From IMG/VR virus record IMGVR_UViG_3300008108_000013: a stretch of DNA of 64,000 bases. The stretch is one strand, 5' to 3'. The stretch comes from a virus. Lineage: Duplodnaviria > Heunggongvirae > Uroviricota > Caudoviricetes. Position 1 is the stretch's first letter; the number at the start of each line of letters is the position of its first letter. A program made the translations under genes and the position numbers. The notes beneath the pieces were generated by a model. The model was not told the DNA's origin. It saw only the letters and a program-made list of their open reading frames with translations, and made no database searches. Below are positions 3,401 to 23,914 of this stretch, piece after piece.

Positions 3401-3401
3401 C

Positions 3402-7733: not shown

Positions 7734-8176
7734 TATACACTCTTTAACATATCATAGACATTACTGTTTATTTCGTCATGTAAAACAGTATTATTAAATA
7801 ATTCACTTATATACATTTCAACTCCTCTGGATCTCGATCGTCCCTTAGCACAATAGATGTGTACTATAGATCCTTGTGGAATAGTTTCAATAAACTTTTT
7901 TAATTCTACTGCTTGTTCTTTGGAACAGGCATGAGCATAAATTATTCTTTGGTCATTATTAAACCAAGGTATAACTTTTAATCCTGTTTTATGTACATCA
8001 TCGAAATATAAATTAATTACGTTTCTATGTTCTTTTTTAAAATAAGGAATTCCGTGTATCCAGCCAGTTGCATTTATACAAATAAAATATTCGTTAAGTA
8101 ACTCAACATTACTGTCGTTGATGTCGGACATGGCCTCTTCAAAGGAGGATCGAGAATATCTTCTAACGTCTAGCAT
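7733..8176 (-). CDS. dual-specificity / tyrosine phosphatase-like protein
   Basis: CX5R P-loop VHIYCAKGRSRSRG with an upstream acidic YFDDVH. Confidence 0.55.
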   Translation of the reverse strand: MLDVRRYSRSSFEEAMSDINDSNVELLNEYFICINATGWIHGIPYFKKEHRNVINLYFDDVHKTGLKVIPWFNNDQRIIYAHACSKEQAVELKKFIETIPQGSIVHIYCAKGRSRSRGVEMYISELFNNTVLHDEINSNVYDMLKSV

Positions 8177-8741
8177 AAAATTCTAAAACACGATTTACTT
8201 TTTCTAATTTTTCGCCTGTTAAAAAATGTTTACCAATAAAGAATTTTAAATCTATATTGGACATTACAGGATTCCTTAACCAAAACTCTATAAGATCCTT
8301 TAGTTGATTTTTACTGATTCCCTCTTTACTATTTGATGTATCTTCAACTTCTGTTATAGTTAAGTGTAGCAGATTAGTTATATCTGTCTTTTTTTCTAAG
8401 GGAATCATCTTACAACGATCTTTTAACTCATGTTTAATTTTTGAATAGGGATCATTTATAGCCTGATAAAAATCTCCCGAAATACTTCCAATGACTAGCA
8501 TATTCGGAACCCACCCATATACATCTTCAAGTAGTTTAATTTGATAATCTTCTACACAGGCGCAATTAATAAACAAGTCTGCTGATCGTGCTTCTTTAAC
8601 TATTTCATCATAGTTGATTGTAAAATCGTATCCTGTAGTTCTACTAAGCTGTACAGTTCCTTCGAACATTTCGAATAACCATTTTCCCAAGAAGTGACTA
8701 GGATTTTCAGAAGACCCGCCGCCGGTCATAACTACTTTCAT
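8163..8741 (-). CDS. hypothetical protein with Rossmann-like N-terminus
   Basis: KVVMTGGGSS Gly-rich N-terminus. No further confident motifs. Confidence 0.3.
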   Translation of the reverse strand: MKVVMTGGGSSENPSHFLGKWLFEMFEGTVQLSRTTGYDFTINYDEIVKEARSADLFINCACVEDYQIKLLEDVYGWVPNMLVIGSISGDFYQAINDPYSKIKHELKDRCKMIPLEKKTDITNLLHLTITEVEDTSNSKEGISKNQLKDLIEFWLRNPVMSNIDLKFFIGKHFLTGEKLEKVNRVLEFYARR

Positions 8742-9394
8742 AGATATAATCCTTTAACATCGTCAGTCCATACTTTTCCATATAAATGTATTCTGTTCGA
8801 ACTACCTTTGTTTTCAACACTATGGGGCAAAGTAGTATTAACTAGATATGCCCACCCAGGTTCCATATGATATTCTTCTCCGTCGATAATCCAATTACTT
8901 TCAAGATTAGTATATATAGGTATGTGTACTCTAATCTTGTCAGGACTGTCTTGATGAGTTATTAACTTAGTTCCTGGTACGTGATCAGTGACTAACCATT
9001 TCTTACTTCGTATAGGCATCGATTGTACAATCTCAAGAGCATAGCCATAAAAGCATTTTCTTGGATTTAGTTTATCATTGTCGTTGTCTTGATACTCTGG
9101 TTTAGCCATTCCTTGCTCAAATGGCTTCGGGCCTGGCTCATCATTACTCCAACAAAGGGTATAGTAGCCTGTATCATCTGGCAATATGTGTCCTGTTGTA
9201 CCAGTCATATCAACGATAGGTTCTTGCCAGACGTGATGATTTTCACCGACTAAAAATTTCCAATCTCGATATTTCGTTTCTAAGTCTTTATACCATTGTT
9301 GCAGTTGTACAGCATCTACCTTAAACCAAGGTTTAACTTTAAATCCAAGATCGACAGAATCAAAGTTCTGTATATACCTTTTCATTTTAGTCAT
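8738..9394 (-). CDS. AspH-like 2OG/Fe(II) cupin oxygenase
   Basis: DHVPGTKLITHQD...RVHIPIYTN...LPHSVEN, the same architecture as 2678. Confidence 0.6.
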   Translation of the reverse strand: MTKMKRYIQNFDSVDLGFKVKPWFKVDAVQLQQWYKDLETKYRDWKFLVGENHHVWQEPIVDMTGTTGHILPDDTGYYTLCWSNDEPGPKPFEQGMAKPEYQDNDNDKLNPRKCFYGYALEIVQSMPIRSKKWLVTDHVPGTKLITHQDSPDKIRVHIPIYTNLESNWIIDGEEYHMEPGWAYLVNTTLPHSVENKGSSNRIHLYGKVWTDDVKGLYL

Positions 9395-10115
9395 TAGTTA
9401 AATCAATAACCTTTGTTAATTGCCAAGGAGCAATTCTAGTAATAATATGAGATCTAAATTCTTTAGACTCGTTGGATGTTCCGTGCCAGTCACCGGTGTT
9501 TAAGATATAAATTTTTCCTAGCTTCATATGGTATTCCCTTTCTTTATTTGGGCCAAAATGAAACTTTGCATTTTCATTTGTTTCTACAGGTATATGTAAC
9601 TTTAAAACTTTACTGTCGAGATGCTGTCTAATATACATACCTGGATGATGAGTAGTAATAATCATCTGTCTAAAAGAGTCTTCACCTAAAACAGATATCA
9701 TTTCTTCTAAGTACCCGAATTTCATTTTTGACATTATCTTAGCATCATCAAAAAACGTATTCCTATTAACTTCAGGAAATAACTCAAGATTGCATTGTTG
9801 CGGAGGCGGTAACGGCTCATATCTTTCTGTTGGCCAAGAAAAGGTAATCCCATCGATAGGACCGCAGTAGTAACCACAATATCCTTCTTCAACCATTTGT
9901 TTACTTAATTCTAAGTCTAACTTTTCCGAGTAGGTATTAAAATTAAATCGCATGTGAGAAAACTTCTCATTTACTTGAGAATACCACTCTGATAATTTAC
10001 TAGTATCGAGCGAATAGTTAAGTTCCAGTAAATCCCAATCATTAGACTCAATTAAAAATTCTTCGGTTATTCCGTGATTTTTGGGATCGTAGTCTTTGAT
10101 AATACGTGCTTTCAA
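9387..10115 (-). CDS. AspH-like 2OG/Fe(II) cupin oxygenase
   Basis: THHPGMYIRQHLD...LHIPVETN...GDWHGTSN. Confidence 0.55.
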   Translation of the reverse strand: MKARIIKDYDPKNHGITEEFLIESNDWDLLELNYSLDTSKLSEWYSQVNEKFSHMRFNFNTYSEKLDLELSKQMVEEGYCGYYCGPIDGITFSWPTERYEPLPPPQQCNLELFPEVNRNTFFDDAKIMSKMKFGYLEEMISVLGEDSFRQMIITTHHPGMYIRQHLDSKVLKLHIPVETNENAKFHFGPNKEREYHMKLGKIYILNTGDWHGTSNESKEFRSHIITRIAPWQLTKVIDLTND

Positions 10116-10153: not shown

Positions 10154-11188
10154 ATGAGGTGCAAATATTTAGATAACCAAGTGTGCATAAGATCAAACGG
10201 ACAATACAGACTGTGTTGTGCGAGTTTAGAATCTGACAATTTAGAAAATGTTAGAACGCATACTATTGAAGAATGGCGTAACAGTCCAACACACGTTATC
10301 ACAAGACAACAGTTAGAAAATAATATTTGGCCGGATGCGTGTCTTAAATGTAAATTGGACGAAGATGCTGGTAGATCAAGCCAACGATTAAAAACTGCCG
10401 AATATGGCCCGGGACTAACACATTTAGATTTAAGATTTAGCAATAGTTGTAATTTATCTTGTAGTATGTGTTGGCCCGGAAGTTCTTCAAAATTAGTCGA
10501 AGAACACAAAGCATTGGGGGAGTTGTCACCTTGGGGAAGTTTAACCTTTGACCTAGTAAATTGGTACGAAGAAGATTTAGTCGGTAATCTAATTAAATCT
10601 GTTCCTGAATTAAAAGAGGTATACCTCACAGGTGGCGAACCTTTTATGGTTAAAGGCATATTAGACTTTTTAAAAAAGTTAGACGAGAACGTTACTGTAA
10701 GATTTAATACTAACGGTACTTTATACAATGATAAAATTTTTAAAGAATTAAAAAGATTTAAACACGTTAACATTAGTTTTTCCGTAGACGGAATTGGCAA
10801 AGTTAATGATTATATACGTTGGGGAAGTACTTGGAAAGAAATCGAATATAATATAAACAAGTATCAGGAACTTAGCGGTTTCTTTAGTGTTAGCTCTGTA
10901 GTACAAATTTTAAATATCCTTTACATTGATGAACTTAAAGAATGGGTTAAATCTCTAAACTTAGAACACTACGAAACATTCTTGTTGAATCCTAAGCATT
11001 ACTGCCTTTATAACGCTGTGGATGATATAAAAAATACAGTTAAGGGTTACGATCATATTAGAAATATAGAAGCAGATGTCTCAGAACAAAATAAATTTGT
11101 TGAATATACTAATATTTTAGATAACAATAGAAATTGTAAGATAAGAGATTACTTACCGGAGGTTGCAAAACTTTATGGTATTAATTAA
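10154..11188 (+). CDS. radical SAM enzyme, family A (N-terminal Cys-rich extension)
   Basis: CIRSNGQYRLCC ... ACLKCKLDE ... SCNLSCSMC (CxxxCxxC) ... TGGEP ... C-terminal NNRNCKIRDYLPEV. Paralog of 15500, 16788, 18942 and 38120. Confidence 0.7.
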   Translation: MRCKYLDNQVCIRSNGQYRLCCASLESDNLENVRTHTIEEWRNSPTHVITRQQLENNIWPDACLKCKLDEDAGRSSQRLKTAEYGPGLTHLDLRFSNSCNLSCSMCWPGSSSKLVEEHKALGELSPWGSLTFDLVNWYEEDLVGNLIKSVPELKEVYLTGGEPFMVKGILDFLKKLDENVTVRFNTNGTLYNDKIFKELKRFKHVNISFSVDGIGKVNDYIRWGSTWKEIEYNINKYQELSGFFSVSSVVQILNILYIDELKEWVKSLNLEHYETFLLNPKHYCLYNAVDDIKNTVKGYDHIRNIEADVSEQNKFVEYTNILDNNRNCKIRDYLPEVAKLYGIN

Positions 11189-11624
11189 AGAAAATAAAGA
11201 AAAACATAGATCAGTATTCTTCGACGGAGAAAATTATGTCAAGGTGTGGGGCAATACTACTCCGCAGTGGATATCAGAACATGTAAGTATTCTTAATGAG
11301 CTAGTTCCTAACTACGTAATCGAGTATGGCGGCAATTGGATAAAATTTAAAACCGTACAAGGAACACCTGCTAGCGAATTTGATCATACTGAGGAATTTA
11401 TTAACAGAGTCTATAATTTTTGTTTAGAACAAATTGAGAAAACATTGCCGTATGCACACGGTGATTGGGTGTTAAGCAACATAATTATAAAAGAAGATTC
11501 TATGTTTATGGTAGACTGGGATAATGTTGGAATTTACCCTAAAGAAGAAATATATAAAAAACTACACAATGATTTAAAAAGTGCCTTTGGAGAAAAATAC
11601 AAGTATGACACCACAGTCGTTTAG
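11163..11624 (+). CDS. mini kinase, APH/choline-kinase-like catalytic segment
   Basis: HGDWVLSNIII (HGDxxxxN catalytic loop) followed by VDWDNVG (DxD/IDWE-like motif). Only 153 aa. Confidence 0.4.
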   Translation: MQNFMVLIKENKEKHRSVFFDGENYVKVWGNTTPQWISEHVSILNELVPNYVIEYGGNWIKFKTVQGTPASEFDHTEEFINRVYNFCLEQIEKTLPYAHGDWVLSNIIIKEDSMFMVDWDNVGIYPKEEIYKKLHNDLKSAFGEKYKYDTTVV

Positions 11625-12822
11625 TTACCCAACATTAGGTAAAGACGGATTAATTTATTGTCCGCCATACGGTTTAGACGAACCTATGGATTTTATGATT
11701 ACAATAAATCCTAAAACTTTTGATATTCAGAAACTCCCTATTAAGGTTAACAACAGTACAGAAAAATGGACATTTGGAATTACTGTAGATGATAAGATCT
11801 ATTGGTTGCCTTACGGCGAAAGCAAAGTGTTAGTAGTCAATACAACAACAAAGAAGGTCGATTACATTGATATTGATTGGCCTGATAATACAAAAAGCAT
11901 CAAAGGCAAATTTGTTCAAGGACACATTTATAAAAATAAAATTTATGCATTACCTTATGGCGAAGACCAACCACTTGACTACGTATTAATAATAGATACA
12001 ACTACTGATAACGCAGTCCTTAAACCCCTACACTTGCCTGATACCGATACTAAAAAATGGCATCAAAGTGTGTTGCGTGGTAATACAATATATGCTGTAC
12101 CTCGAGGTGGCTCTAAACCGTTTAATTTTGCAATCGAATATAATTGTGACGACTGTAGTGTTAAGTTTATAAACTTTAGCAAATACTATGAAGGGTATCA
12201 AGATACTAGCATGAAGTTTACAACTATAGGTATGATCGACGATATAATCTATGCGGCTCCGTATGGTTACCACGATGATTTTGATTTTTTAATTACAAAT
12301 AAAAAAGGTGAATGGAAATCGGAAAGAACTGGTATAACAGGAACAACAAGAAGATACTTCACTAACATCAAGACAAAAAATGAAAAATTATATTTTCCTC
12401 CTGCAGGCCATCACTCATCATGGAGTAAATTTTTAATCATCGACAGCAATGGCTATAAAACTATAGATCTTGGAATAACAAAGGAAACTAAAAAATACTT
12501 CGCAGGAGTTGAAAATAGCCAAGGCAAAGTCTATTATATTCCCCGAGGCGGATGTGTTTGTGATCCAGATGCCGAATTAAAATTAACCGGAGACCTAGCA
12601 GAAGTATTAGTATTTGATACTAAAGACGATAGTTACTATACTGTCGACGTAAGCAGTTGCTTCACTGATAATACAACTATAGAAAAGTACAATGCCTGTT
12701 GTATTGTCGATGACGTAATATTTGCTATGCCGTACGGTGAAAGCAATTCTTTTCAAACTGTATTAGTTTTTGATACAACACAAGATAAAATTATTAAAAC
12801 GATAGATCTAAATGGCATATAA
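11581..12822 (+). CDS. PYG-repeat protein (beta-propeller-like), paralog 1
   Basis: At least 8 repeats of about 45 aa with the core (I/L)Y(x)(x)P(Y/R)G(E/G)xxx and a trailing DTTT/NTTT (e.g. IYWLPYGESKVLVVNTTT, IYALPYGEDQPLDYVLIIDTTT). The start is uncertain; ATG 11605 is an alternative. Confidence 0.5.
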   Translation: MPLEKNTSMTPQSFSYPTLGKDGLIYCPPYGLDEPMDFMITINPKTFDIQKLPIKVNNSTEKWTFGITVDDKIYWLPYGESKVLVVNTTTKKVDYIDIDWPDNTKSIKGKFVQGHIYKNKIYALPYGEDQPLDYVLIIDTTTDNAVLKPLHLPDTDTKKWHQSVLRGNTIYAVPRGGSKPFNFAIEYNCDDCSVKFINFSKYYEGYQDTSMKFTTIGMIDDIIYAAPYGYHDDFDFLITNKKGEWKSERTGITGTTRRYFTNIKTKNEKLYFPPAGHHSSWSKFLIIDSNGYKTIDLGITKETKKYFAGVENSQGKVYYIPRGGCVCDPDAELKLTGDLAEVLVFDTKDDSYYTVDVSSCFTDNTTIEKYNACCIVDDVIFAMPYGESNSFQTVLVFDTTQDKIIKTIDLNGI

Positions 12823-13963
12823 AGCGTTCCAAGATTTTTATTTAGAAGAATCAATTAAACATCTGTTGTTAACAGAGTATAATGGCTGTTTAGTAAGTCC
12901 TCCCTTTGCTACAGAAAAATGCAAAGACTACAATCAAATTATGATCATCGGAAATGATGTGTCGTTTATTGATTTAGATTTGCCGCCTGCAACTAGCAAG
13001 TTTAATGCTTATACTGTGATAGGAGACAGTCTTTGGCTAATACCGTATGGTATCTGGGATAACTTTAATGTCGTGGTACAATTAAAAGATTTTAAACCTA
13101 TATATCATTATATCGATAAACCAGGAAAAGGCCAATTTTATAATGTAGCATCTAATGGCGAAACTGCTTTTAGTTTTCCTTTAGGGTACGAAGATACAAG
13201 TTTTGGGATCTTTATCAGGGATCAACAAGTCCATACAGTTGAATTTGAAAAACAATCTCAAACAAAATTACACATGGGCTGTGTATATGCAAATGGAAAA
13301 TATTGGAGTGCTCCTAGAGGTGACGAACCTGGCTATGTTAATATGATGAGTTTTGATGGCGAACAGTTAAAGTCGTATCCTATCAACTTGCCTAATCCTA
13401 ACATTACTAGAAAATACACCGATATTATTGTTAAAGGAAACACATTGTATGCTATGCCGTTTGGAGAACAACCGGGTTTGATGGAAGTTATAGAGTTTGA
13501 TACTGTTAGTGAAAATTACAAACTTCACAAACTGAATATGCCAGACGTTGCAAAAAAGTTTAACTGTATGGTAGAAGTTGATGAATATATTATCGGACTA
13601 CCTTACGGAACAAAAGGCGATACAAACAGTCGCTGGGGTATATCTTTTAATACTACAACTAACGATTCTGCTTGTTTTGACTTAGGGGAAGATTTTGCCG
13701 ACGGTGGAAAATATCGTTTTAGATGCGGAGTTAATTTTAATAACAATGCTGTATTTTTTCCTGCTGGTACTCCTGACTGTCCAATAGTTAAAGTCAGTAA
13801 AGACTTAACAATTACTACAAAGCACATTGAGGGCGTTATGTTTGGTAGACCTATTGTACATGACAATAAGTTAAAAGTCTTAGGTTATGATATGCGCGAT
13901 GCTACTAACTCGCTTTATGAGTTTGATGAGAGTTTAAATTACTCTAAAACCTTTTTAAGATAA
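12812..13963 (+). CDS. PYG-repeat protein (beta-propeller-like), paralog 2
   Basis: LWLIPYGIWDNF, YWSAPRGDEPGY, LYAMPFGEQPGL and IIGLPYGTKGDT repeats. Confidence 0.5.
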   Translation: MAYKAFQDFYLEESIKHLLLTEYNGCLVSPPFATEKCKDYNQIMIIGNDVSFIDLDLPPATSKFNAYTVIGDSLWLIPYGIWDNFNVVVQLKDFKPIYHYIDKPGKGQFYNVASNGETAFSFPLGYEDTSFGIFIRDQQVHTVEFEKQSQTKLHMGCVYANGKYWSAPRGDEPGYVNMMSFDGEQLKSYPINLPNPNITRKYTDIIVKGNTLYAMPFGEQPGLMEVIEFDTVSENYKLHKLNMPDVAKKFNCMVEVDEYIIGLPYGTKGDTNSRWGISFNTTTNDSACFDLGEDFADGGKYRFRCGVNFNNNAVFFPAGTPDCPIVKVSKDLTITTKHIEGVMFGRPIVHDNKLKVLGYDMRDATNSLYEFDESLNYSKTFLR

Positions 13964-14844
13964 ATGTCGCTAAGACAACTACATTTATTAGTACCGCAGA
14001 CAATCGGACTGTTAGGGAGTATAAAAGAATCTATAGTTCCAATCTTGCCGCCTTGCTGACAATCTGCTCGATAAACATCTCCCCACTGATCAATACTAAC
14101 CATATGCTGTCCTGCCCAGCATTTCCATCCTTTGAAGTTATTAAGACCCTTTAGTATTAAATCGTTACCCGATACTCGCTGTCCGTCTAATGCTATTTCA
14201 CCTCGATGCATCTTGTAGTCATTAACTGATCTAAAATAAGGCCACTGGTTTATGATTCTTCTTTGTTGTTCTGTGTAATCAGCAACTTCATTAGAGATGT
14301 GATTTATATCGCTTTTATCTAAAATAACTTTTGGCCATACAATAACATTAGGTGATCCGTTATACAACTTATCAGCTACTGCTAGTAGCTCATCAAATTT
14401 ATCAGGCACTAGCATTAGGTTGACTGCTACTACTCCTTTAATTGTTTGAGCAACATTAACGCAATGATCAACATCAGCATACTCTGGATGGTAGCTAAGT
14501 ATCATGCCATCAGTATAGTTACTAATAGATTTAAAATATTCAACACTTTGACTGCCGTTAGTTAAAAAGCTAAAAGTATGGCCTTGTTCTTTAACTACTT
14601 TAGCCATGTCAATAAAGTGTTTCCAATAAGTCGGTTCACCGCCGCTGATTCGATAGCAAATTTCCTTGCCCGGCAAATTAAAATTTTCTATAAATCTCTT
14701 AACTGATTCCCAAGTCGGCCAACCTGAACTACCATCATGCAAATTGCTAGGGCAATAACTACACCTATAATTACATTTGTTTGATAGTGTCCAGCTGACT
14801 AGAAACCAATCTTCTTTTTTAGGATCGAGATAAGTTAATTTCAT
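13939..14844 (-). CDS. radical SAM/SPASM-like enzyme, family B
   Basis: SNKCNYRCSYCPS (CxxxCxxC), ISGGEPTYW, HPEYADVDH and a C-terminal Cys cluster (CWAG..CQQGG..CGTNKCSC). Confidence 0.7.
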   Translation of the reverse strand: MKLTYLDPKKEDWFLVSWTLSNKCNYRCSYCPSNLHDGSSGWPTWESVKRFIENFNLPGKEICYRISGGEPTYWKHFIDMAKVVKEQGHTFSFLTNGSQSVEYFKSISNYTDGMILSYHPEYADVDHCVNVAQTIKGVVAVNLMLVPDKFDELLAVADKLYNGSPNVIVWPKVILDKSDINHISNEVADYTEQQRRIINQWPYFRSVNDYKMHRGEIALDGQRVSGNDLILKGLNNFKGWKCWAGQHMVSIDQWGDVYRADCQQGGKIGTIDSFILPNSPIVCGTNKCSCLSDIYLKKVLE

Positions 14845-15503
14845 TAGTACACATTCATTCCGTGTTTAAGGATAATATCATGTGTACGTTGATTTAATTT
14901 AACTGTTAATATCATTGAATAGACACTATCAGTAAAACTAAACACAGAATGTTCTCTTTGGAAATTAGCAAAGTAAAAATAGCCAGGATCAAAGTACAAC
15001 GGTTTACCATCAAGTAACTGTACATAGTTCTCCGGCTTGCACTTTCCAAATGTCATTATAAGGCGTAGGTATTCTGGTGCAGGGCCTGGATAGTCTACGT
15101 GCGGCGGAAAGAACCCGCCAGCATCTAATTTTAAAAAATGTACACGACCGATATCTGGTCTAAAAATATCAACTACTTGCTGTATCTCAGGAAGTGCATG
15201 ATATACTTGTGTTGGCGTTGTGAAGTTATCATCTTTTAAATCAACATCATGATAATTTTGTAAGTAACCAAAACTGTTTAAGTGATAGTTATCCATGACA
15301 TCGCCTGTGTGGCTAGTTACAGGTAACCCCCACCTATTATTGTGCGTATCTTTTTTTAAGTTATAAGGGCACCAGTTATCTTTAAATTGTAAAAGGTCGT
15401 GCTCTAACTTCAATGGTTCGACACGAAGTTTTAATTTAAGGTACAGACCTAAGTTTGTTAGGCTGTGCCATAGCAACCCTCTTTCAATTTCTTCATTAGT
15501 CAT
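14844..15503 (-). CDS. cupin 2OG/Fe(II) oxygenase-like protein (divergent AspH-like)
   Basis: GRVHFLKLDAGGFFPPHVD ... FQREHSVFSF (HxD...H). Confidence 0.45.
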   Translation of the reverse strand: MTNEEIERGLLWHSLTNLGLYLKLKLRVEPLKLEHDLLQFKDNWCPYNLKKDTHNNRWGLPVTSHTGDVMDNYHLNSFGYLQNYHDVDLKDDNFTTPTQVYHALPEIQQVVDIFRPDIGRVHFLKLDAGGFFPPHVDYPGPAPEYLRLIMTFGKCKPENYVQLLDGKPLYFDPGYFYFANFQREHSVFSFTDSVYSMILTVKLNQRTHDIILKHGMNVY

Positions 15504-16795
15504 AATATTTTTAAGTCCGGAAAAATTTTCCTAAAATCTGTATTCCTTGTTTGGTCACATATTTCTAAATACTCAACAGTACTAGGTAATTTAGAAGACC
15601 AGTCTTCGGACATCATGTATCCGATTAATCCTTCCCAACGCTGTTTTCCGTATGTGTTATTTACAAAACCAGGATCTTGGTACTCATTTAAAAAGGCTTC
15701 AATCCTAGATTTTGCCAATTGTTTTAACTCTAACGGCAAAACTTTAACATTTAAATAGCTTGGTAAGTACACCAAATGCAATCCGATAACACCGCCACCA
15801 TATGGATATAGATTAATCTTTTTAAAGTTAGATTGAATCTTCCAGCGAGCTAGATCAGTTATGTATAGGACATTTAGTAACTGAACAGCGCAGGCAACAT
15901 TTATAGTAATATGATCAGGTGTATTGTCTAACTTATTCAAGTTTGTAACAACGTCTGCCCACTTACTAGGATAACGAATGTAGTCATTGTGTTCACCAAG
16001 TGCATCTATACTAAAATTAAACTTAACCTGTTTGAATTGATTCCAAAGATCAAACAACTTGTCAGGTAGCTCTAAACCGTTTGAGTTGTATCTTAATATA
16101 CAGTTCTTAGCATGTCCACTTTCTACCATGAACTCTAATATTTTATAGTGCTCGGGTATTAGTAAAGGTTCACCACCGGCAAAGTACAACTCTTTGATAT
16201 TGTGTGCTTGAGCCTTCATGTTTTCTAAGAAGGCGCTATCCTTATACCAGGTGTAATCAAATGTTCTATCCCAACCTTGATCTTGTTTAAGCTCAACAGT
16301 CTTATACTTAGGATACTGTTGTTTCCAATCTTTAATCCAGCTTGAACTATCGTGTGGACTACACATGACACATTTTAGTTGACATAAGTTACCCAAACGC
16401 AAGTCGAAGTAGGGTATATCAACAGGTAATGTTCCGTCTGAACCTGTCTTAGTAACAATGCTATCAATATCAACACGATCCTTCCATACCATAGTTTCCC
16501 ATTGACGTTTACTTGTGATACCTTTACTTTCTTCTTCAAAACATTTAGTACAACTATTCGGAACTTCACCATTAAGCATTTGTAAACGAGTTGTCTTCAT
16601 GCTTTCGCTATTCCATACTTCGTCTATAGAATGCTTTGCTAAGTTTAAAACCTGTCCTTGGTGTTTAACTAATCCTGCTTCTTTGTCGTCAACTATTCCT
16701 GCACCGCTAGCATTGGCCGTGCAACATACTCTTACATCACCGTTTGGTCTTGTAGCGATATGAATCCAAGGAAGTGGGCAAAAGGTCTTACTCAA
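15500..16795 (-). CDS. radical SAM enzyme, family A
   Basis: MSKTFCPLPWIHIATRPNGDVRVCC, NSCTKCFEEE, GNLCQLKCVMC, AGGEP and C-terminal QTRNTDFRKIFPDL. Confidence 0.75.
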   Translation of the reverse strand: MSKTFCPLPWIHIATRPNGDVRVCCTANASGAGIVDDKEAGLVKHQGQVLNLAKHSIDEVWNSESMKTTRLQMLNGEVPNSCTKCFEEESKGITSKRQWETMVWKDRVDIDSIVTKTGSDGTLPVDIPYFDLRLGNLCQLKCVMCSPHDSSSWIKDWKQQYPKYKTVELKQDQGWDRTFDYTWYKDSAFLENMKAQAHNIKELYFAGGEPLLIPEHYKILEFMVESGHAKNCILRYNSNGLELPDKLFDLWNQFKQVKFNFSIDALGEHNDYIRYPSKWADVVTNLNKLDNTPDHITINVACAVQLLNVLYITDLARWKIQSNFKKINLYPYGGGVIGLHLVYLPSYLNVKVLPLELKQLAKSRIEAFLNEYQDPGFVNNTYGKQRWEGLIGYMMSEDWSSKLPSTVEYLEICDQTRNTDFRKIFPDLKIL

Positions 16796-18104
16796 AAAGC
16801 TCTCCTAGTTCTGGAGTAACATCTAAAATGTTTTGATTGCGGCGCTGGTCGATAACTTTTGTAAATCTAACAAACTCAGGAATACGTTCTTGTGATAGAT
16901 CTTCCTGATCCATGAAGTTTAAAATTGATTTTAGTATAGAAACTGATGCAGACTTTACATTGTCATTTAGATCACTTTCTAAGAATTTGTTAATCCAGCT
17001 ATCGTAATGTAACTTTAATTTATTTCTTATAGACTCTGGATACATCCTAACACTAACACAATATGGTTTGTGTACAGGGTGTGTAGTTATAACAGGTCTT
17101 TTCTCTCTAGAATTAATTTTTTTAAATCCGCTATCAACTAATTTCCACCACATAAATTCCGGCAAGTGAAAAGCATTGTAGGCACTAACAGTGTATGTTA
17201 TATGGACCATAACGTTAGGATTTTGTTGACATATCTCATCTAGCTGTATTAAGTTCTTAAGGGTAGTATTCCATTTAATAGGATATCGTTGATACTCTTG
17301 CATAGACCCCATGCCGTCAACGCTGGCACCTATTCTAACTTGTTTAAACTGTGTCCAAAGTTCTAAAACTTTTTTCGGTAATGATGTGATATTTGTATTA
17401 TATTCTAGGATTATTTTTGAAGCTCGACCAGCGGCAATACACTTTTCTAAGAATAGAGTATGCCTATCTATAATTAAAGGCTCTCCGCCTGCCATGTAAA
17501 CGTGTTCAATATTATTAATTTGTTCTTCTATCTGCTGCCAAAAGAATTCTGACTCGTGCCAGTTGTAATCATCAGTGACAAACCTTCCTTTGTCGTTCCT
17601 TATCAAATGGACCCACCCGTGACTATCTAAGAACCCCTGCTTTTGATCATACGCAACCCAATCCTCATACCACGAGTGGCTGTCTGTTGGCCCGCACATA
17701 CGACAGGCAAGATTACAGGTGTTACCGAATCTTAAATCGTAATAGCGAGTATCTAAGTTTATACTCCCATCATCGTTTGTACTGTTTACTGCATCTTCGT
17801 AAGTAAAGTTCCACTGATCAATTTCGTTAAGACGTCTGCTAGACATACCAGATTCTTCTTCTTGCTGGCATCTTTTACATTCATCACTCCACACACCATT
17901 AATAATATTCTTCCGAATCTCTTTAATCATGATAGCATTTTTAGCATCAACTATAGAATCTTTACCTGCATTAAAGGGTGTTCCATCATCTTTTCTTGCA
18001 GTTCCTTGATTAGGAGTCACGTTGGCTTGGCAACAAACACGCATGTCGCCATTGTTGCGTACTGCTTGATGTATCCAAGGTAAAGGACAGAATGTTTTAG
18101 ACAT
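16788..18104 (-). CDS. radical SAM enzyme, family A (tandem paralog)
   Basis: MSKTFCPLPWIHQAVRNNGDMRVCC, DECKRCQQEE, GNTCNLACRMC, AGGEP and C-terminal QRRNQNILDVTPEL. Confidence 0.75.
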   Translation of the reverse strand: MSKTFCPLPWIHQAVRNNGDMRVCCQANVTPNQGTARKDDGTPFNAGKDSIVDAKNAIMIKEIRKNIINGVWSDECKRCQQEEESGMSSRRLNEIDQWNFTYEDAVNSTNDDGSINLDTRYYDLRFGNTCNLACRMCGPTDSHSWYEDWVAYDQKQGFLDSHGWVHLIRNDKGRFVTDDYNWHESEFFWQQIEEQINNIEHVYMAGGEPLIIDRHTLFLEKCIAAGRASKIILEYNTNITSLPKKVLELWTQFKQVRIGASVDGMGSMQEYQRYPIKWNTTLKNLIQLDEICQQNPNVMVHITYTVSAYNAFHLPEFMWWKLVDSGFKKINSREKRPVITTHPVHKPYCVSVRMYPESIRNKLKLHYDSWINKFLESDLNDNVKSASVSILKSILNFMDQEDLSQERIPEFVRFTKVIDQRRNQNILDVTPELGELFE

Positions 18105-18954
18105 TAAGTAGATACCTCATAAGAGAACTTATTCCCACTAGCTCTCCGCTTCTATCTATAGCTACATGGATAGCCTTAGTCTGAGTTAGATCGAAGTCCC
18201 TGCAGACTTTTTCATTCACGTCAGCATATTTTTTCCAAAAGTAATCTGGTTCAATATTGTTTAAGATATAAAGTGCAACGATTGTGGTCATTCGATTGCA
18301 CATATGAAAGTCATTCATTATGCTAATAGAGTCGGCTTTCTCTTCTTTAGTCCATCTTAAACCAATTCTATTCCAACCCAGTCCTAGACCTTTTGAAAGG
18401 CTGATGCCTAGTGATACAATAGCAGGATGATCAAAATTAAAATCAATTGTGCGGCTACATGTAATCCATGCTCCGTCGACATGCACAGGAATATTTTTTT
18501 TGGCACATTCATCTAAAATTCCATTCATGCCTGTATGAATATCAGCAGTACCTGGAAAAGGTAAAGAAATTATTAAAGGAATTCCGGGGATCAATGTGCC
18601 GGGTATAGATCTTGTAAAAGAATAACCTAATCTTTCGTGATACTTATAATCACCTTCAATTGTCTGTACGTACCCGGACATATATAAATTATCAATAAAC
18701 TGTGTACATCCGTTAATTATATCGACTCTGTTAAAGGTTTCAAGTCCTCTTATTTGATTCAAGGTCGACGCAGTTAACCAACTAATCATTTTATCTTTAA
18801 AAATATTATGTACGTTATCCGTGTGATCAGGCACCCAACCGTTATAACCAGTTAATGTTGAATTAAACAATGACTCAAGATGACTATCGCAAAAAGGTTT
18901 TAATCTACCTTTTTGTAAATAATCTTGAGAATATTCAGGTGCTATTCTTTCCAT
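18097..18954 (-). CDS. PLP-dependent aminotransferase-like protein (short)
   Basis: SLSKGLGLGWNRIG matches the SxSK...GxRxG PLP-lysine region of fold-type I aminotransferases. The protein is only 285 aa. Confidence 0.4.
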   Translation of the reverse strand: MERIAPEYSQDYLQKGRLKPFCDSHLESLFNSTLTGYNGWVPDHTDNVHNIFKDKMISWLTASTLNQIRGLETFNRVDIINGCTQFIDNLYMSGYVQTIEGDYKYHERLGYSFTRSIPGTLIPGIPLIISLPFPGTADIHTGMNGILDECAKKNIPVHVDGAWITCSRTIDFNFDHPAIVSLGISLSKGLGLGWNRIGLRWTKEEKADSISIMNDFHMCNRMTTIVALYILNNIEPDYFWKKYADVNEKVCRDFDLTQTKAIHVAIDRSGELVGISSLMRYLLNV

Positions 18955-20219
18955 TCTAACATCATCTCATAACACTTTGGAAATACTTCTTTCCAATTAA
19001 TATTTTGTAAACTAGACATCTTAAAGAAAAAGTCTTTAAGATCCTTTCGTCCTTGGATTATTTCATCAACGGTTATAGGCATTTTATTTGCGTACAATTC
19101 CCATTGGTTTAATTTAGAAAGTATCTCCGTATCTGTTGTTTTAGATCGTAGATAGACGAACATCCTATTTCTTTGATCCTCAGACAGTAATCCTATATTT
19201 AAATATTTAGGATTCATAACCGGATGACTTACTACACCAGCAAATGTATCTTTATTAATCTTTTTAAAATTCTTATTCTTTAACCAAAGCATCCAATCGA
19301 CTATGTTTTCTAAATTTAAAATCGAAACCGTAGTACTGGTAAAAACAGTAATATTAGCTGGCGTACTGTCAAGTATATCTAAATTCTTTTCTACAACTTT
19401 CCAAGGTGTTGGATATCGTATCGCATGGTTAACATCTGCTGTTCCGTCAACACTGGCACACAACTTAACTATTTTAAAATTTGAAAATAAATTAAAAATA
19501 TAATCGGGTAACACAGTTACATTAATACTATACTCTAATTCAATATCATTGGCAAATCCATTACTAATAAGTGCCTCTAATAAAGCAACGTGTTCTTTAA
19601 CTAGGAATGGTTCGCCGCCACCGAATTTAATCTTTTTAACAAACATCGAATGTTTAGCAACTAACTCGTAATACTCTTTTTGGTTGGCCCAATCAAATAC
19701 CTTTGTGTCGTCGATTGAATATGACACATCATCGATAGAAAAGATACGCTTACCTGTTACCTTTTCTTGTATCTTATACCATTGATTACTTTCTCCAGGA
19801 TAACACATAACACATTGTACGTTACACTTATTACCTAATCGAAGATCTAGGGATAAGATACGGTATTCAGATACTGTGCCGTCAGGGGCAGTGATTGCTC
19901 TAGCGTCTTCTTTGGTAAAATCATACATAGTCGATTCCCATTGATTCCGACTACGTTTACCTGCTTCGCTTTCGATACGACATCGTCTACATTGTTCGGG
20001 CCATTCATTGTTTAAAAATTTAGCACGAACTTCTTTCAACGTTTCGCAATTACTGATATCAAATTTTAAATCGTCAATAGTTAATATCTTTTCGTTCTGC
20101 GTTAACACAGTTTTCTTATTGCCGCCGCTTTGGCTGTGAGAGCATAGTCGCAGATGTCCATTACTTTTAACAGCAATATGACTCCACGGCAACGGACACC
20201 ATTTATCTAAATTGCTCAT
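18942..20219 (-). CDS. radical SAM enzyme, family A
   Basis: MSNLDKWCPLPWSHIAVKSNGHLRLCS, EQCRRCRIES, GNKCNVQCVMC and GGGEP. ATG 20219 is preferred because it matches paralogs; the track start is 20237. Confidence 0.7.
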   Translation of the reverse strand: MSNLDKWCPLPWSHIAVKSNGHLRLCSHSQSGGNKKTVLTQNEKILTIDDLKFDISNCETLKEVRAKFLNNEWPEQCRRCRIESEAGKRSRNQWESTMYDFTKEDARAITAPDGTVSEYRILSLDLRLGNKCNVQCVMCYPGESNQWYKIQEKVTGKRIFSIDDVSYSIDDTKVFDWANQKEYYELVAKHSMFVKKIKFGGGEPFLVKEHVALLEALISNGFANDIELEYSINVTVLPDYIFNLFSNFKIVKLCASVDGTADVNHAIRYPTPWKVVEKNLDILDSTPANITVFTSTTVSILNLENIVDWMLWLKNKNFKKINKDTFAGVVSHPVMNPKYLNIGLLSEDQRNRMFVYLRSKTTDTEILSKLNQWELYANKMPITVDEIIQGRKDLKDFFFKMSSLQNINWKEVFPKCYEMMLEWKE

Positions 20220-21168
20220 TAAACCTATCCACTTCACCGCACTGGCGACTACATTCTTTTAACGGACTATTCTCCCATGTACTTGCAATACTGTTAAAGT
20301 ATCCGCTATCAAAAATTTCTGCTAAACTGTTTTCATGTAAGTTAGGATACTTGCCTATCTTATCCATATAATCTATTCTGTTGGGATGGTTAGGATTAAA
20401 CCATTCGTTGTCTAGCCAACAACAAGGAACAACATTTCCTGTAGCACTAACATACAGACTCTTTTCATTGGCTACTTTACAGGTAATCGCTTTAGATTGT
20501 TCAGACACAACAATTTTCTTGCTTTTATCTGTTGGATACAGTATATGTAATGTACGACCTTCTTTATCTAATACTTGTAACTTGTCTTCTTTGAAACGTG
20601 CTGTGTTCTTTGCTACAAAATGTTTGAACCCCATGCGCTGGCTCAATTCTTTACAAATCTCTACTTGGTGTTTATTGTGTTCGAAAATTAACATATCCCA
20701 AGTTGCTGTTCCACCTTCTTTGATAAACAACTTAGCATTATCAAGAATCTTAACCCAGTCTGTGCCAATGCGGTATAAGGGGTGTGTATCAATAAGCCCG
20801 TCAATACCAAATCGAACATGTACATCTAACTTAGCAAGTCCCTTCCAAAAATTTTCACTCTTAGCGGAACCGTTAGTGTTCATGCTTAATTGTATGTCTG
20901 GATTTGCTGATCGCAAGTATTCAAAAATCTTTAATGTATCCTTAGCAATAATGGGGTCGCCTAAGTTACCACACATATATAACCTGTCTAACTGCTTTAT
21001 AATACCGTCGGGGAACCACTCTTTAAACTGTTCAAGTGTAATCTCGTCAATTGTAATAAAAGGATTTTCAATGCCGCCTTGAATGTTACGGGCACACATA
21101 GGACAACTAGCCTGACAACGACTGGTAACTTCTAAGTGAACTGTCCTAATATCCGTTAGTTTATACAT
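20203..21168 (-). CDS. radical SAM/SPASM-like enzyme (distinct type)
   Basis: TSRCQASCPMC (CxxxCxxC) at the N-terminus. C-terminal Cys-rich region TCKV...PCCWLDNEW...CSRQCGE. Confidence 0.7.
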   Translation of the reverse strand: MYKLTDIRTVHLEVTSRCQASCPMCARNIQGGIENPFITIDEITLEQFKEWFPDGIIKQLDRLYMCGNLGDPIIAKDTLKIFEYLRSANPDIQLSMNTNGSAKSENFWKGLAKLDVHVRFGIDGLIDTHPLYRIGTDWVKILDNAKLFIKEGGTATWDMLIFEHNKHQVEICKELSQRMGFKHFVAKNTARFKEDKLQVLDKEGRTLHILYPTDKSKKIVVSEQSKAITCKVANEKSLYVSATGNVVPCCWLDNEWFNPNHPNRIDYMDKIGKYPNLHENSLAEIFDSGYFNSIASTWENSPLKECSRQCGEVDRFNEQFR

Positions 21169-22168
21169 TCAACTTCCTTTTAGGAATCTTAACCTCTGTC
21201 GGGCAATTACAATATAACTGCTGACAGCGTGTAGTTGTGATTACATCAGGAGTAAACTTTGACTCAAACTCAGGGTCGTATATAGAAAATCTATTAACAC
21301 CACCAAACATATTTCTTGCACCACAGCTACCGCTAATAACACCATCTCGCTCTATAGCAAATCTATCTACGCCCAAGTTACAATCCCAGCCTGTAAAGTA
21401 ATGCCAACCATTTTGAATTACTTTAAAAGTATCAGCCGGTATCTCTTCTCCAGAATCCATAACTACACGCATGTCGGATTTAGAATCCTGGATCCTTCCG
21501 AGATCTCTTTGTTTCTGTATCCACTCTACAGGAGGAATTTTTTTCATCTTCTGTTCAGTATAGGCAATCTGTTCCGGAGTAAATCCTTTTATTTCACCGT
21601 CAGTAAATATAGGTTTAGTCTTTAACACCCACGGTGTAGGATGTGCCTTCATTTTCTCGGCTATCTCAACACAGCGATCCCAGTGTAAAGGATCCATTAA
21701 TACCTGTGCATTGATTAGCACATCAGTATTATAAAACACCCAATCCATTACTTCAATGATATGGTCGACATCCGCAAATTCATTATGTACACTAATACTA
21801 ATATCATCAAAGTACTTTGCATACTCCATCCAGAATCTCATAGTTCTTGATGCGTTAGTAACTATACTAATTTTACAGTCATGATTTTTACTAAAATATT
21901 CTGCAAATTCACCTAGCTCTGGCCATAGACTCGGCTCACCGCCGGTCAAGTTTATACGCACATTTTGTTTGCCAAGATGTTCTTTGTATATCTTTAACAT
22001 ATGGCTGAGATTCTTAGTGACCATATTAAAGTCTGTAGGGAATCGATACTTGCCATCATTACAGCCGTCGTAGCAATAATGACACTTATAGTTACACAAC
22101 GTTCCTATGATGTATTCGATTCTCAAGACACCGTCAAAGTCTTTATTTAAGATTGCTATCGGCTTCAT
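21161..22168 (-). CDS. radical SAM/SPASM-like enzyme, family B
   Basis: GTLCNYKCHYC, LTGGEPSLW, HNEFADVDH and a C-terminal CNLG..SGSCGARN..RCQQLYCNCP. Confidence 0.7.
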   Translation of the reverse strand: MKPIAILNKDFDGVLRIEYIIGTLCNYKCHYCYDGCNDGKYRFPTDFNMVTKNLSHMLKIYKEHLGKQNVRINLTGGEPSLWPELGEFAEYFSKNHDCKISIVTNASRTMRFWMEYAKYFDDISISVHNEFADVDHIIEVMDWVFYNTDVLINAQVLMDPLHWDRCVEIAEKMKAHPTPWVLKTKPIFTDGEIKGFTPEQIAYTEQKMKKIPPVEWIQKQRDLGRIQDSKSDMRVVMDSGEEIPADTFKVIQNGWHYFTGWDCNLGVDRFAIERDGVISGSCGARNMFGGVNRFSIYDPEFESKFTPDVITTTRCQQLYCNCPTEVKIPKRKLNV

Positions 22169-22758
22169 TTCTTACCTATTATCATAAAACGTTTATATAA
22201 CGGTAGATCCAATTCGCCGGAATATAAAATTTGTTCTAGTCCTGATTGCTGTTTAAATTCTTCTAAATCTCGAGCAATACGAACATGTTCCGGAATACTG
22301 TAATTGTTACTCTGTAACACAATTAAACTATCGTGTGGAAGCCCCGATAGCCACAGATCATATTCGTCTTGTGTAATGTGTTCGCAACTAGTGTTAATAA
22401 CAACATCTGCATCACTTCTAATATTACACATATCGGCTGTGATTGCTCTAAACTTACCTTTTTCTAATTCGATCTGATTCATATTATGAGCGATTTCTTC
22501 GCACTCAGGATCGATATCAATACTACGAATATAGTGACAAGGCACATTACTTTGAAATAACATACTCGCTAGTGTTCCAACCCAACCGCCGTGAATATCC
22601 ACACTAACGCTAGAATGTACTAATTCGTCTAAATTATCTATTAACCATTCTTTACTTAATATTTGGCCGCGCCAAAACGCATCCATAGTACGAATAGGAT
22701 CTTTACTGTTTCGTATGGCTCTCATCCAATGATGTAAATGTTCTGTGTCTATTTGCAT
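22165..22758 (-). CDS. hypothetical protein, possibly class I SAM-dependent methyltransferase
   Basis: VDIHGGWVGT (motif I-like Gly-rich loop) and DADVVINTS. Weak. Confidence 0.3.
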   Translation of the reverse strand: MQIDTEHLHHWMRAIRNSKDPIRTMDAFWRGQILSKEWLIDNLDELVHSSVSVDIHGGWVGTLASMLFQSNVPCHYIRSIDIDPECEEIAHNMNQIELEKGKFRAITADMCNIRSDADVVINTSCEHITQDEYDLWLSGLPHDSLIVLQSNNYSIPEHVRIARDLEEFKQQSGLEQILYSGELDLPLYKRFMIIGKK

Positions 22759-23723
22759 TTTGGTATTTTACTATCCGCTGAACTTACGCAACTAGGTGTA
22801 ATACAGCTTTGAGGTTGTTTAAATAATTCAAAGTTATCTAGTGTTCCTAAAGATTGGTCGTGACAACTGTAACTTCTCTTGACCTCAGTTCCCCTAATTA
22901 TAACACTCTGGTATCCTGAATTGCAAGTCCAATTATTAAATTTATTAAAACCAAAAGAATTAAATCTTTCAGCTTGATCGAATAGGTATTCTGTCCCAGA
23001 GTTATCATAAAGAGCAATCTGATAAACATCTTCTCCATTTGACGACTGAGGAAATCCTTCTCTCATTAAATGTAGCATTTCCTCAGTATAACCATCAACA
23101 ATCGCAGTAGCATCTAAAGTACTCTGCGGTTTTAAGGTAACACTTATTCCTCTTTTATGTAGGCGTTCCATGCGTTCATATAATGTATAAAATTGATCTG
23201 GAACCATAACTTGATTAACTGTAAGCAAAACATTTTCATACATTAATTGTAAACACTTGTCTCCGAATTCTTGTTCTTTGGCAAACTCTGCATGGTAGCT
23301 GGCAGTGATACTTCTGCGCTGTAGTGTAGATGTAACACTGGCCCAGTTCTTCCACCAATTAGTTCCAGGACTCAAATTTGTAGTCATGTGAATACTTTGG
23401 TAAGGACTTTCTAAATCTTTTTCTACATGTTTTGTTAGATCTAAAAGGTGTTTATAAGCAGTAGGTTCTCCGCCACTAAAACTCCAATGAAATTCTGTAA
23501 ATCCGTTACGTCTTGCTTGGCGCTTTATCTCATCAACTGTTTGTTTGTAAACATCTAACGGTTGGAAGTCAAGTCGATCACTTCTTGCATAGGGCCAACA
23601 GTACGAACAGTTATAATTACAAAAACGACCTAGTATCCAGCTAACCGAAAACAGAGGTCGATTTAACATTGTTCTTTGTCCAAAACGGACTATTTTTTCG
23701 AATGGAATGGTAGAAAATAGCAT
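22749..23723 (-). CDS. radical SAM/SPASM-like enzyme, family B
   Basis: GRFCNYNCSYCWP, FSGGEPTAY and a C-terminal Cys cluster (CNSG..SCHD..SCITPSC..KCK). Confidence 0.7.
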   Translation of the reverse strand: MLFSTIPFEKIVRFGQRTMLNRPLFSVSWILGRFCNYNCSYCWPYARSDRLDFQPLDVYKQTVDEIKRQARRNGFTEFHWSFSGGEPTAYKHLLDLTKHVEKDLESPYQSIHMTTNLSPGTNWWKNWASVTSTLQRRSITASYHAEFAKEQEFGDKCLQLMYENVLLTVNQVMVPDQFYTLYERMERLHKRGISVTLKPQSTLDATAIVDGYTEEMLHLMREGFPQSSNGEDVYQIALYDNSGTEYLFDQAERFNSFGFNKFNNWTCNSGYQSVIIRGTEVKRSYSCHDQSLGTLDNFELFKQPQSCITPSCVSSADSKIPKCK

Positions 23724-23799: not shown

Positions 23800-23914
23800 G
23801 TAGACGTGAGTGGAATTGGTAGACCTCCCCTATGGTAAGTATCAAACTGCCATAGGGGGCCTGGGCCTAGCCAATATGGCGGCTTTGTAGGTTCGAATCC
23901 TACCGTCTACACCA
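23800..23914 (+). tRNA. atypical tRNA-like gene (115 nt; tRNA-Leu-like D-loop, unresolved anticodon arm)
   Basis: Perfect 7-bp acceptor stem gtagacg/cgtctac. T-arm gtagg-TTCGAAT-cctac. Discriminator A plus encoded CCA. D-loop GGAATTGGTAGAC as in tRNA-Leu. Between them lies a 10-bp perfect hairpin tcccctatgg/ccataggggg with a 14-nt loop that does not fit a canonical anticodon arm. Confidence 0.5.

Follow-up and report, generated by a model that had tools for sequence, protein, structure and literature searches.

Within a 64,000-nucleotide stretch of DNA from a Caudoviricetes virus (IMG/VR record IMGVR_UViG_3300008108_000013; the whole stretch is referred to here as the window), the ten open reading frames (ORFs) at 13939-23723 include genes for several radical S-adenosylmethionine (SAM) enzymes. 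Three of these proteins, B1, B2 and B3, are assigned on sequence evidence to one uncharacterised radical SAM family, within which they are anciently diverged paralogs, and their C-terminal domains are most likely of the twitch type rather than the SPASM type, with one extra Fe-S cluster predicted for each. A fourth protein, SP, is a separate radical SAM enzyme whose C-terminal domain is related to the twitch domain of neighbouring family-A enzymes. As a whole, the explanation that we consider best, namely a cassette of twitch radical SAM enzymes serving one tailoring pathway, with a carbohydrate- or nucleoside-type substrate favoured, has about an even chance of being right.

B1, B2 and B3 are paralogs of one radical SAM family

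The three B genes and SP were found at the positions given for them in the original prediction, all on the minus strand. B3 (22749-23723, 324 aa) is the first gene of the operon, with radical SAM cysteines C35/39/42 and a twitch-like domain encoded at approximately nt 22752-22946 (C267, C287, C307, C312 and C323); B2 (21161-22168, 335 aa) has C25/29/32 and a twitch-like domain at approximately nt 21164-21403 (C263, C282, C315, C320 and C322); and B1 (13939-14844, 301 aa), the last gene, has C24/28/31 and a twitch-like domain at approximately nt 13942-14142 (C242, C262, C283, C288 and C290). Scores against the Pfam Radical_SAM family (PF04055) were 45.4 bits for B1, 46.3 for B2, 50.4 for B3 and 37.6 for SP, all above the gathering score of 29.5, and no exception to the CX3CX2C motif occurred among 140 B-family and 44 SP-family relatives. 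All four proteins are accordingly placed in the radical SAM superfamily by sequence.

The paralogy proposed for the three B proteins held over their full lengths, with 22% identity between B1 and B2 (BLASTP E 2e-23), 28% between B1 and B3 (E 8e-24) and 22% between B2 and B3 (E 7e-13), and with 41 invariant columns in the three-way alignment. Each consists of an N-terminal CX3CX2C site and a partial TIM-barrel core followed by a C-terminal domain of about 80 residues; an AlphaFold2 model of B2 had a predicted local distance difference test score (pLDDT) of 91.3, and matches of a full-length B profile to sequences in the PDB were confined to residues ~11-134.

The motifs said to be shared by all three proteins proved to be shared in part. 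CNYxCxYC is present in every one, although the B3 copy spans residues 32-42 and so merely starts within the first 35 residues. The GGEP(T/S)xW and H(P/N)E(Y/F)ADVDH motifs occur in B1 and B2, whereas B3 reads GGEPTAY and HAEFAKEQEF at these sites, and in the latter region only S-x-H is general across the 140 relatives. The range of four to six C-terminal cysteines narrows to exactly five in each protein.

The C-terminal domain of the B family is most likely a twitch domain

Relatives of the B proteins comprised 122 database homologs of B2 and at least 206 viral relatives from a scan of IMG/VR, from which 80 loci were kept, and cysteine conservation was counted in 140 non-identical B-family ORFs from the related loci (B2 numbering). 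C263, C282, C315 and C320 were conserved in 100% of these and C322 in 78%, giving the spacing C-x18-C-x~32-C-x4-C(-x-C). The SPASM motif is defined by seven cysteines (CX9-15GX4C-gap-CX2CX5CX3C-gap-C) and carries two auxiliary clusters, whereas the twitch domain is a truncated SPASM domain with one auxiliary cluster (PMC6231123). With five C-terminal cysteines, four of them invariant, B1-B3 lack the seven-cysteine signature, and the full proteins gave no SPASM match (PF13186 or TIGR04085) at E<=0.1. When 59 diverse C-terminal domains were searched in isolation, SPASM was the sole Pfam family matched by more than one of them (7 of 59, best E 0.0015, all below threshold). Matches of the B C-terminal profile to SRCR and to tagatose epimerase were dismissed as spurious.

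A profile of the isolated B domains aligned with the sactisynthase SkfB (6EFN) in such a way that the five B cysteines fell on C333, C351, C380, C385 and C387, in a weak match (E 0.52) for which a chain offset of +2 in SkfB numbering was corrected and checked against the published CX33CXC spacing. According to the SkfB paper, C351, C385 and C387 are the ligands of Aux I, and C333 occupies the pre-hairpin position that is a cluster ligand in all other characterised SPASM/twitch enzymes. In the AlphaFold2 model of B2, a beta-hairpin (269-272/277-279) lies between C263 and C282, as in twitch domains, and hhalign aligned this Cys1-hairpin-Cys2 segment with the twitch domain of family A (E 6.6e-4, probability 27%). 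The twitch layout of a cysteine, a beta-hairpin, a second cysteine and two further cysteines past the next helix is thus present in the B proteins. Because they have five C-terminal cysteines rather than the seven that hold two clusters in SPASM, we consider the domain most likely to be of the twitch type, with one extra Fe-S cluster predicted for each protein from sequence and model. Of the SPASM/twitch C-terminus originally proposed for the three paralogs, then, a conserved twitch-like domain remains and a two-cluster SPASM signature does not.

The domain is modular, as two copies are found in a 655-aa Oligoflexia protein. B-type enzymes of about 650 aa are encoded in metagenome-assembled genomes (MAGs) binned as Bdellovibrionota or Oligoflexia (locus L088, 4721-6688 and 11276-13240; L087, 5993-7960; L085, 9692-11635), and the aligned L088 protein has a second Cys-rich twitch-like domain at its far C-terminus. 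Many members of 640-660 aa with two matched stretches were also seen in a full-library hidden Markov model (HMM) search.

SP and the family-A enzymes

SP (20203-21168, minus strand, 321 aa) has radical SAM cysteines C18/22/25 and a twitch/SPASM-type domain encoded at approximately nt 20206-20487. The motifs TSRCQASCPMC, PCCW and CSRQCGE reported for it are all present. The proposal that it is a distinct radical SAM-SPASM protein stands insofar as it passes the Pfam SPASM threshold (PF13186, 28.5 bits against a gathering threshold of 21.5, residues 230-310), but its C-terminus conserves four to five cysteines rather than the seven needed for two auxiliary clusters. The cysteines kept in 44 relatives and 32 database homologs are C230, C249 (or C250), C306 and C310. 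In an AlphaFold2 model of SP (pLDDT 90.0) a hairpin (237-240/245-247) lies between C230 and C249, and hhalign aligned the C-terminal domain with the N-terminal twitch domain of the family-A enzymes (probability 96%, E 4e-9). SP is therefore classed by sequence as a separate radical SAM protein with a four-Cys C-terminal domain homologous to the N-terminal twitch of its neighbours, and one extra Fe-S cluster is the most likely complement predicted from its sequence and model.

Five family-A radical SAM enzymes had been counted in the window, and all five were recovered by one route or another. NT1 (15500-16795), NT2 (16788-18104) and NT3 (18942-20237), all on the minus strand and with an N-terminal twitch domain, scored 430, 373 and 281 bits against NCBIfam N_Twi_rSAM (NF033640; cutoff 170 bits), and NT1 also matched Pfam SPASM at residues 6-85 (35.4 bits). 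The NT1 cysteines C6, C24, C82 and C85 were invariant in 148 relatives. NT0 (10154-11188, plus strand), which lies outside the 13939-23723 region, falls with the NT family in BLAST comparisons and in its conserved cysteine pattern, and it stands in the same conserved block in close relatives (syntenic in L001, L002, L004 and L029). The fifth, at 38120-39499 on the plus strand, is related through a shared core: it is 24% identical to the family-A core over 342 aa (E 9e-17), and has a different N-terminus, a CNFKCSYC motif and a location 14 kb from the operon.

Family A shares operon and cassette with the B proteins and SP, and the radical SAM cores are distantly related, but its twitch domain is N-terminal, whereas the Cys domain of B and SP is C-terminal. 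Against the N_Twi_rSAM model B1, B2, B3 and SP scored 20.4, 33.4, 28.0 and 66 bits, and because these scores lie below the cutoff they are not members of that family.

A translationally coupled operon and a conserved cassette

All ten ORFs at 13939-23723 lie on the minus strand, and every gene junction overlaps by 1-35 nt, leaving essentially no intergenic space; from these end-to-end overlaps the ten genes are taken to be one translationally coupled operon. The order of transcription is B3, the methyltransferase-like gene u197, B2, SP, NT3, a pyridoxal phosphate (PLP)-like gene, NT2, NT1, u219 and B1.

Window proteins were run by tblastn against 84 related loci (±10 kb). NT genes co-occurred in 75 of them, u197 in ~57-59 and SP in 51, and about 40 loci shared the order B3-u197-SP-NT-B2 on one strand, with B1 and another NT gene on the other. 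Identity among orthologs was 59-86% for B3 (~40 viral loci), 31-54% for B2 and 22-62% for B1. These ranges, together with the conserved order, indicate that the B types are of long standing and have been maintained separately, and they point to distinct roles for them in one process. The suggestion of multi-step radical chemistry is thus a reasonable reading, given one conserved operon with multiple radical SAM genes, and the comparison of genomic context that had been proposed for phage metagenomes shows the gene core recurring across dozens of viral contigs, at least 80 in all.

Family B is large, with at least 561 clusters (50% identity) at E<=1e-30 in the full-library HMM search, and its full-length relatives come mostly from viral contigs. 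Campylobacter phage CP21 (Firehammervirus) was the only cultured phage with full-length relatives; there, CP21_029, 028 and 027 form a tandem, share the C-terminal Cys domain of the B proteins and are 18-27% identical to them. Of the three B proteins, B1 is the closest to the CP21 relatives and to those in Bdellovibrionota MAGs. CP21 differs in that no u197 homolog and a single weak match to the NT core were found in the stretch examined.

Cassettes of this kind have been recorded before. In 2010 the T4-like myoviruses CP220 and CPt10 were described as carrying 11-12 radical SAM genes with no function assigned, including exchangeable five-gene radical SAM modules, each of which also has a putative glycine amidinotransferase (PMC2853527). 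Twelve radical SAM genes are present in an ocean T4-like viral genome (PMC5332604), and pelagimyophages carry radical SAM cassettes in a hypervariable 'host recognition cluster' island beside lipopolysaccharide O-chain genes (PMC7029224). In this literature we found no described function for such phage cassettes.

Partner genes and neighbours

The most frequent partner without a radical SAM domain, u197 (22165-22758, minus strand, 197 aa), is probably a class I SAM-methyltransferase-like Rossmann protein judging from its family: u197 had no Pfam match above threshold and no PDB match, and 8 of 28 family members weakly matched Methyltransf_25 (best E 0.0034). Its linkage is tight, with 43 of 57 copies within 100 bp of a radical SAM gene and 54 of 57 on the strand of the nearest one. 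Second in frequency among such partners in the ±10-kb loci is a 306-aa family that is absent from the window (for example L080, 878-1798; L124, 1696-2616 and 10998-11918). It was present in 38 of the 84 loci, with 28 of 46 copies within 100 bp of a radical SAM gene and 45 of 46 on the strand of the nearest one, and had no Pfam or PDB sequence match. A QueC-like PP-loop ATPase occurred in 21 related loci, 20 of its 23 copies within 100 bp of a radical SAM gene, and a B12-radical SAM protein was likewise a tight viral partner at that distance; such partners usually share the strand of the radical SAM gene. Among the other recurrent neighbours, fam3, fam10 and fam16 gave no Pfam match, and fam3 and fam16 no PDB match.

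Two further operon genes have tentative assignments. The 285-aa protein encoded at 18097-18954 (minus strand) has relatives in nine related loci and bears a weak similarity to fold-type I PLP aminotransferases, through sub-threshold NCBIfam matches to valine-pyruvate transaminase (E 0.0035) and hisC (E 0.017). The u219 product (14844-15503, minus strand, 219 aa), with orthologs in only about eight close relatives, gave no Pfam, NCBIfam or PHROG match and by eye looks like a candidate cupin- or 2-oxoglutarate-oxygenase-like protein (HxD...H).

The flank at 2678-10115 encodes paralogs of Asp/Asn beta-hydroxylase (cupin) at 2678, 6558 (a double domain), 8738 and 9387, and a Trp-halogenase homolog at 5374-6561 (290 bits). 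An AMP-binding fragment of 215 aa at 4229-4876 covers profile positions 168-346 only and is overlapped by the next ORF, so this gene may be split or truncated. The 153-aa protein encoded at 11163-11624 (plus strand) is syntenic with NT0 and with two repeat proteins in close relatives; its sequence HGDWVLSNIII...VDWDN looks, by eye, like the catalytic motif of aminoglycoside/choline kinase-like phosphotransferases. The two repeat proteins (11581-12822 and 12812-13963, both plus strand) consist of ~48-aa repeats with an hhYxhP(Y/R)G motif occurring 7 and 4 times, and the second, running convergently to B1, shares 25 nt with the 3' end of that gene. Both look beta-propeller- or Kelch-like, the L001 ortholog giving a faint Kelch match, and are found in only about seven close relatives; a role as a substrate or as a structural protein is possible.

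Proposed chemistry and substrate

At the level of the family, each enzyme would reductively cleave SAM to a 5'-deoxyadenosyl radical that abstracts a hydrogen atom from the substrate. The single auxiliary Fe-S cluster bound by a twitch domain would then take up the electron of the substrate radical, as has been proposed for BtrN and anSME, or would hold the substrate, as in MoaA. The weakest step of the proposal is the one in which the three B orthologs, SP and the NT enzymes would act successively in one tailoring pathway. The substrate of that pathway would be a sugar nucleotide, a glycan or an aminocyclitol-like molecule in preference to a ribosomal peptide, and we regard a carbohydrate- or nucleoside-type substrate as the favoured candidate at a little below even confidence.

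The strongest pointer to this substrate is that B-like genes abut glycan-synthesis genes in MAGs. On contigs binned as Bdellovibrionota, Oligoflexia and WWE3 they stand directly beside genes for a GT2 glycosyltransferase, an ABC ATPase, two AsnB-type amidotransferases, an FkbM methyltransferase, a sulfatase, a carbamoyltransferase and PMT_2-like proteins (sub-threshold). The genome scan used 12 closer B sequences, and since its patterns favour B2-like sequences, cellular relatives may be under-counted. Some viral loci also carry UDP-glucose dehydrogenase, an NAD epimerase/dehydratase, a DegT aminotransferase and a StrB1-like amidinotransferase (E 3.8e-14), and a cyanophage paper describes a similar trio of DegT-like, radical SAM and inosamine amidinotransferase genes. 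The methyltransferase-like protein, the QueC-like ATPase and the B12-radical SAM protein that are tightly linked in viral loci count in favour as well, as does the place of the pelagimyophage cassettes beside O-chain genes.

Several results weigh against a twitch cassette acting on carbohydrates or nucleosides. For the domain, the B proteins stay below threshold with every curated twitch or SPASM HMM, the alignment with SkfB is not significant alone and the hhalign probability for the B domain against the family-A twitch is low. For the substrate, the cellular contexts rest on MAG binning and one of the loci adjoins a phage integrase; the peptide enzymes SkfB, EpeE, SuiB and CteB are among the nearest structures; and the Asp/Asn beta-hydroxylase paralogs and the Trp-halogenase homolog that flank the operon would suit modification of a peptide or protein. 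In addition, the sugar-nucleotide genes were found in only 9-14 of the 84 loci, at a median distance of 1.5-6 kb from the nearest radical SAM gene, so that their linkage is at the level of the island rather than of the operon, and confidence in the substrate was lowered for this reason.

The alternative that survives best, while being unlikely in our estimate, is the one originally drawn from the presence of SPASM/twitch domains: the B proteins and SP would be maturases that modify a ribosomally synthesised and post-translationally modified peptide (RiPP) or a phage or host protein by cross-links, epimerisations or changes of a similar kind, with the hydroxylases, the halogenase and the methyltransferase-like protein as further tailoring enzymes. 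The C-x4-C-x-C pattern, the identity of the best sequence match of the C-terminal domain (the sactisynthase SkfB) and the two repeat-rich beta-propeller-like proteins encoded directly beside B1 are all consistent with it, as are the several Asp_Arg_Hydrox paralogs and the halogenase adjoining the operon. However, the hydroxylases, halogenase and repeat proteins accompany the radical SAM core in only ~3-8 of the 84 loci. An N-terminal RiPP recognition element (RRE) is present in SkfB, CteB and SuiB, RiPP enzymes with characterised structures, whereas the radical SAM motif of B and SP starts at residue 18-35, leaving no room for one, and no PqqD/RRE match was obtained for the 10 operon proteins (E<=0.1) or for 10 upstream proteins (E<=0.01). 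No family of non-shadow 40-100-aa ORFs was conserved beside the cassette in the 84 loci, apart from IF-1-like and AbrB-like proteins recognised by eye, and the overlapping junctions of the operon offer no space for a precursor gene. The cellular relatives, too, stand in glycan-type contexts. Enzymes with twitch or SPASM domains include BtrN, with its small-molecule substrate, as well as peptide cross-linkers, and the domain does not reveal function (PMC6231123). Peptide maturation is thus not supported for these proteins.

A further possibility is that the product of the cassette is a hypermodified base of DNA, or a base of tRNA, that would protect or serve the phage and would be made in the manner of the thymidine-hypermodification or 7-deazaguanine pathways, which we judge improbable. 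It would account for the QueC-like ATPase that directly abuts radical SAM genes in about 20 loci; CP21, with its tandem of B-family genes, and CP220 are both Firehammerviruses, and the DNA of CP220 is fully 7-amido-7-deazaguanine (PMC10516641). Radical SAM enzymes are also reported to participate in phage thymidine hypermodification. Nevertheless, no DpdA/Tgt, QueD, FolE or hydroxymethylase family was found among the recurrent neighbours, and the B proteins scored at most 30 bits against QueE models with cutoffs above 200. QueE is also not known to have a twitch domain, which counts further against this reading.

Least probable of all is that these are redundant, fast-evolving paralogs without a joint pathway, independent auxiliary metabolic genes piling up in a hypervariable island: radical SAM copy number does vary widely among loci, with up to six NT genes in tandem, the island is hypervariable in related phages (PMC7029224) and the CP220/CPt10 block behaves as an exchangeable module (PMC2853527), but each of the three B types persists as an orthologous line of its own (B3 at 59-86% identity in ~40 loci), the B3-u197-SP-NT-B2 order is conserved and the operon genes are translationally coupled.

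The preferred reading remains a carbohydrate- or nucleoside-directed pathway. Its most specific form, put forward tentatively and the less likely side of the question, takes the gene core to be a phage pathway for an undescribed radical-tailored small molecule or glycan. The core would here comprise the three B-type enzymes, SP, at least two NT enzymes, the methyltransferase-like protein and often a PP-loop ATPase, and its product would be, for example, a metabolite resembling an aminoglycoside or a nucleoside, or an unusual sugar on the surface of the virion or of the infected cell.

The phage and other elements of the window

The source of the window is placed by its sequence among large myoviruses, as kin of the T4-like cyano- and pelagiphages. 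This assignment is based on an RIIB match of ORF 323-1351 (E 1.6e-78), on tail-fibre-like domains in ORF 41496-42950 and on gp7-like patches in a giant ORF. The giant ORF (47906-60169, plus strand, 4087 aa) has in its first 1500 aa short patches resembling cyanomyovirus gp7, baseplate wedge and tail-fibre-like proteins, and it is possibly a VrlC-type giant baseplate protein of the kind described for cyano- and pelagimyophages (PMC7029224). A search of 50,697 phage records yielded no nucleotide match for the operon or for the downstream 24 kb, nor any tblastn match for B2, and the phage therefore has no close cultured relative among them. A protein identical to SP is present on metagenomic contigs of up to 215 kb.

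The ORF at 33132-33752 (plus strand) encodes a ClpP homolog with 61% identity to ClpP of the Pseudomonas jumbo phage PA5oct. Its PHROG label, 'head maturation protease', had suggested a T4 prohead protease; this was rejected, and the ORF lends no support to T4 relatedness. In T4-like ocean viral genomes, ClpP was named alongside auxiliary genes related to Fe-S (PMC5332604).

Finally, B3 and the divergently oriented ORF 23939 are separated by a gap that contains a tRNA-like element at 23800-23911 (plus strand). The acceptor stem of the element is a perfect 7 bp, its T arm is canonical and it ends in CCA, and ~57 nt containing a long hairpin stand in place of the D/anticodon region; it scored 27.3 bits against the Rfam tRNA model (gathering threshold 29, E ~1e-3) and ARAGORN reported nothing. 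The element is kept at the same position in locus L012 (~18200-18316) with a different hairpin sequence. These features would be compatible with an interrupted or degenerate tRNA, or with a small stable RNA of tRNA-like form.

Significance

B1-B3 and SP are new, uncharacterised members of the known SPASM/twitch group of radical SAM enzymes, in a type of phage cassette already on record. New here are the recognition of family B as a distinct twitch-type family whose C-terminal domain escapes every curated model, and the finding that three B types are held as separate orthologs within a compact conserved gene core. To pass directly from 'SPASM/twitch' to RiPP, as is commonly done, is unjustified for these proteins. 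The gene core could be cloned as one defined unit and expressed in a heterologous host, and identifying what it makes would reveal the use to which abundant aquatic phages put so much oxygen-sensitive radical chemistry. Should the pathway for a radical-tailored small molecule or glycan prove true, B1-B3 would be the founders of a new functional class of twitch radical SAM enzymes, and the presence of about ten radical SAM genes in many T4-like phages would be explained.

Comparison with known systems

The best NCBIfam match of the N-terminal ~110 residues of B1-B3 was to viperin and the prokaryotic viperins (NF038283), with 44.8 bits for B1, 70.7 for B2 and 34.5 for B3, all below the cutoff of 180 and covering the first ~100-130 residues. 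The B proteins differ from viperin in their C-terminus, a Cys-rich twitch-like domain; viperin is not known to carry an auxiliary cluster.

SkfB of Bacillus subtilis, like the B proteins, has a partial TIM-barrel radical SAM core followed by a C-terminal twitch domain. Its cysteine spacing, C-x17-C-x28-C-x4-C-x-C, corresponds one-to-one to the C-x18-C-x~32-C-x4-C-x-C of family B, although the sequence match falls short of significance (E 0.52). Because the third cysteine is absolute in family B and the fifth is present in 78% of members, the set of cluster ligands may differ from that of SkfB.

BtrN, BlsE and MoaA act on sugar, nucleoside or nucleotide substrates, namely 2-deoxy-scyllo-inosamine, cytosylglucuronate and GTP. 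Their sequences have no significant similarity to the B proteins past the first ~130 residues of the radical SAM core, and the NCBIfam scores are far below the BlsE and MoaA cutoffs. The four-Cys layout of SP, C-x18-C...C-x3-C, is presumably of the same general type as that of BtrN. In their overall plan, all three enzymes resemble what is proposed here for B1-B3 and SP, a single auxiliary cluster in a truncated SPASM domain with no RRE.

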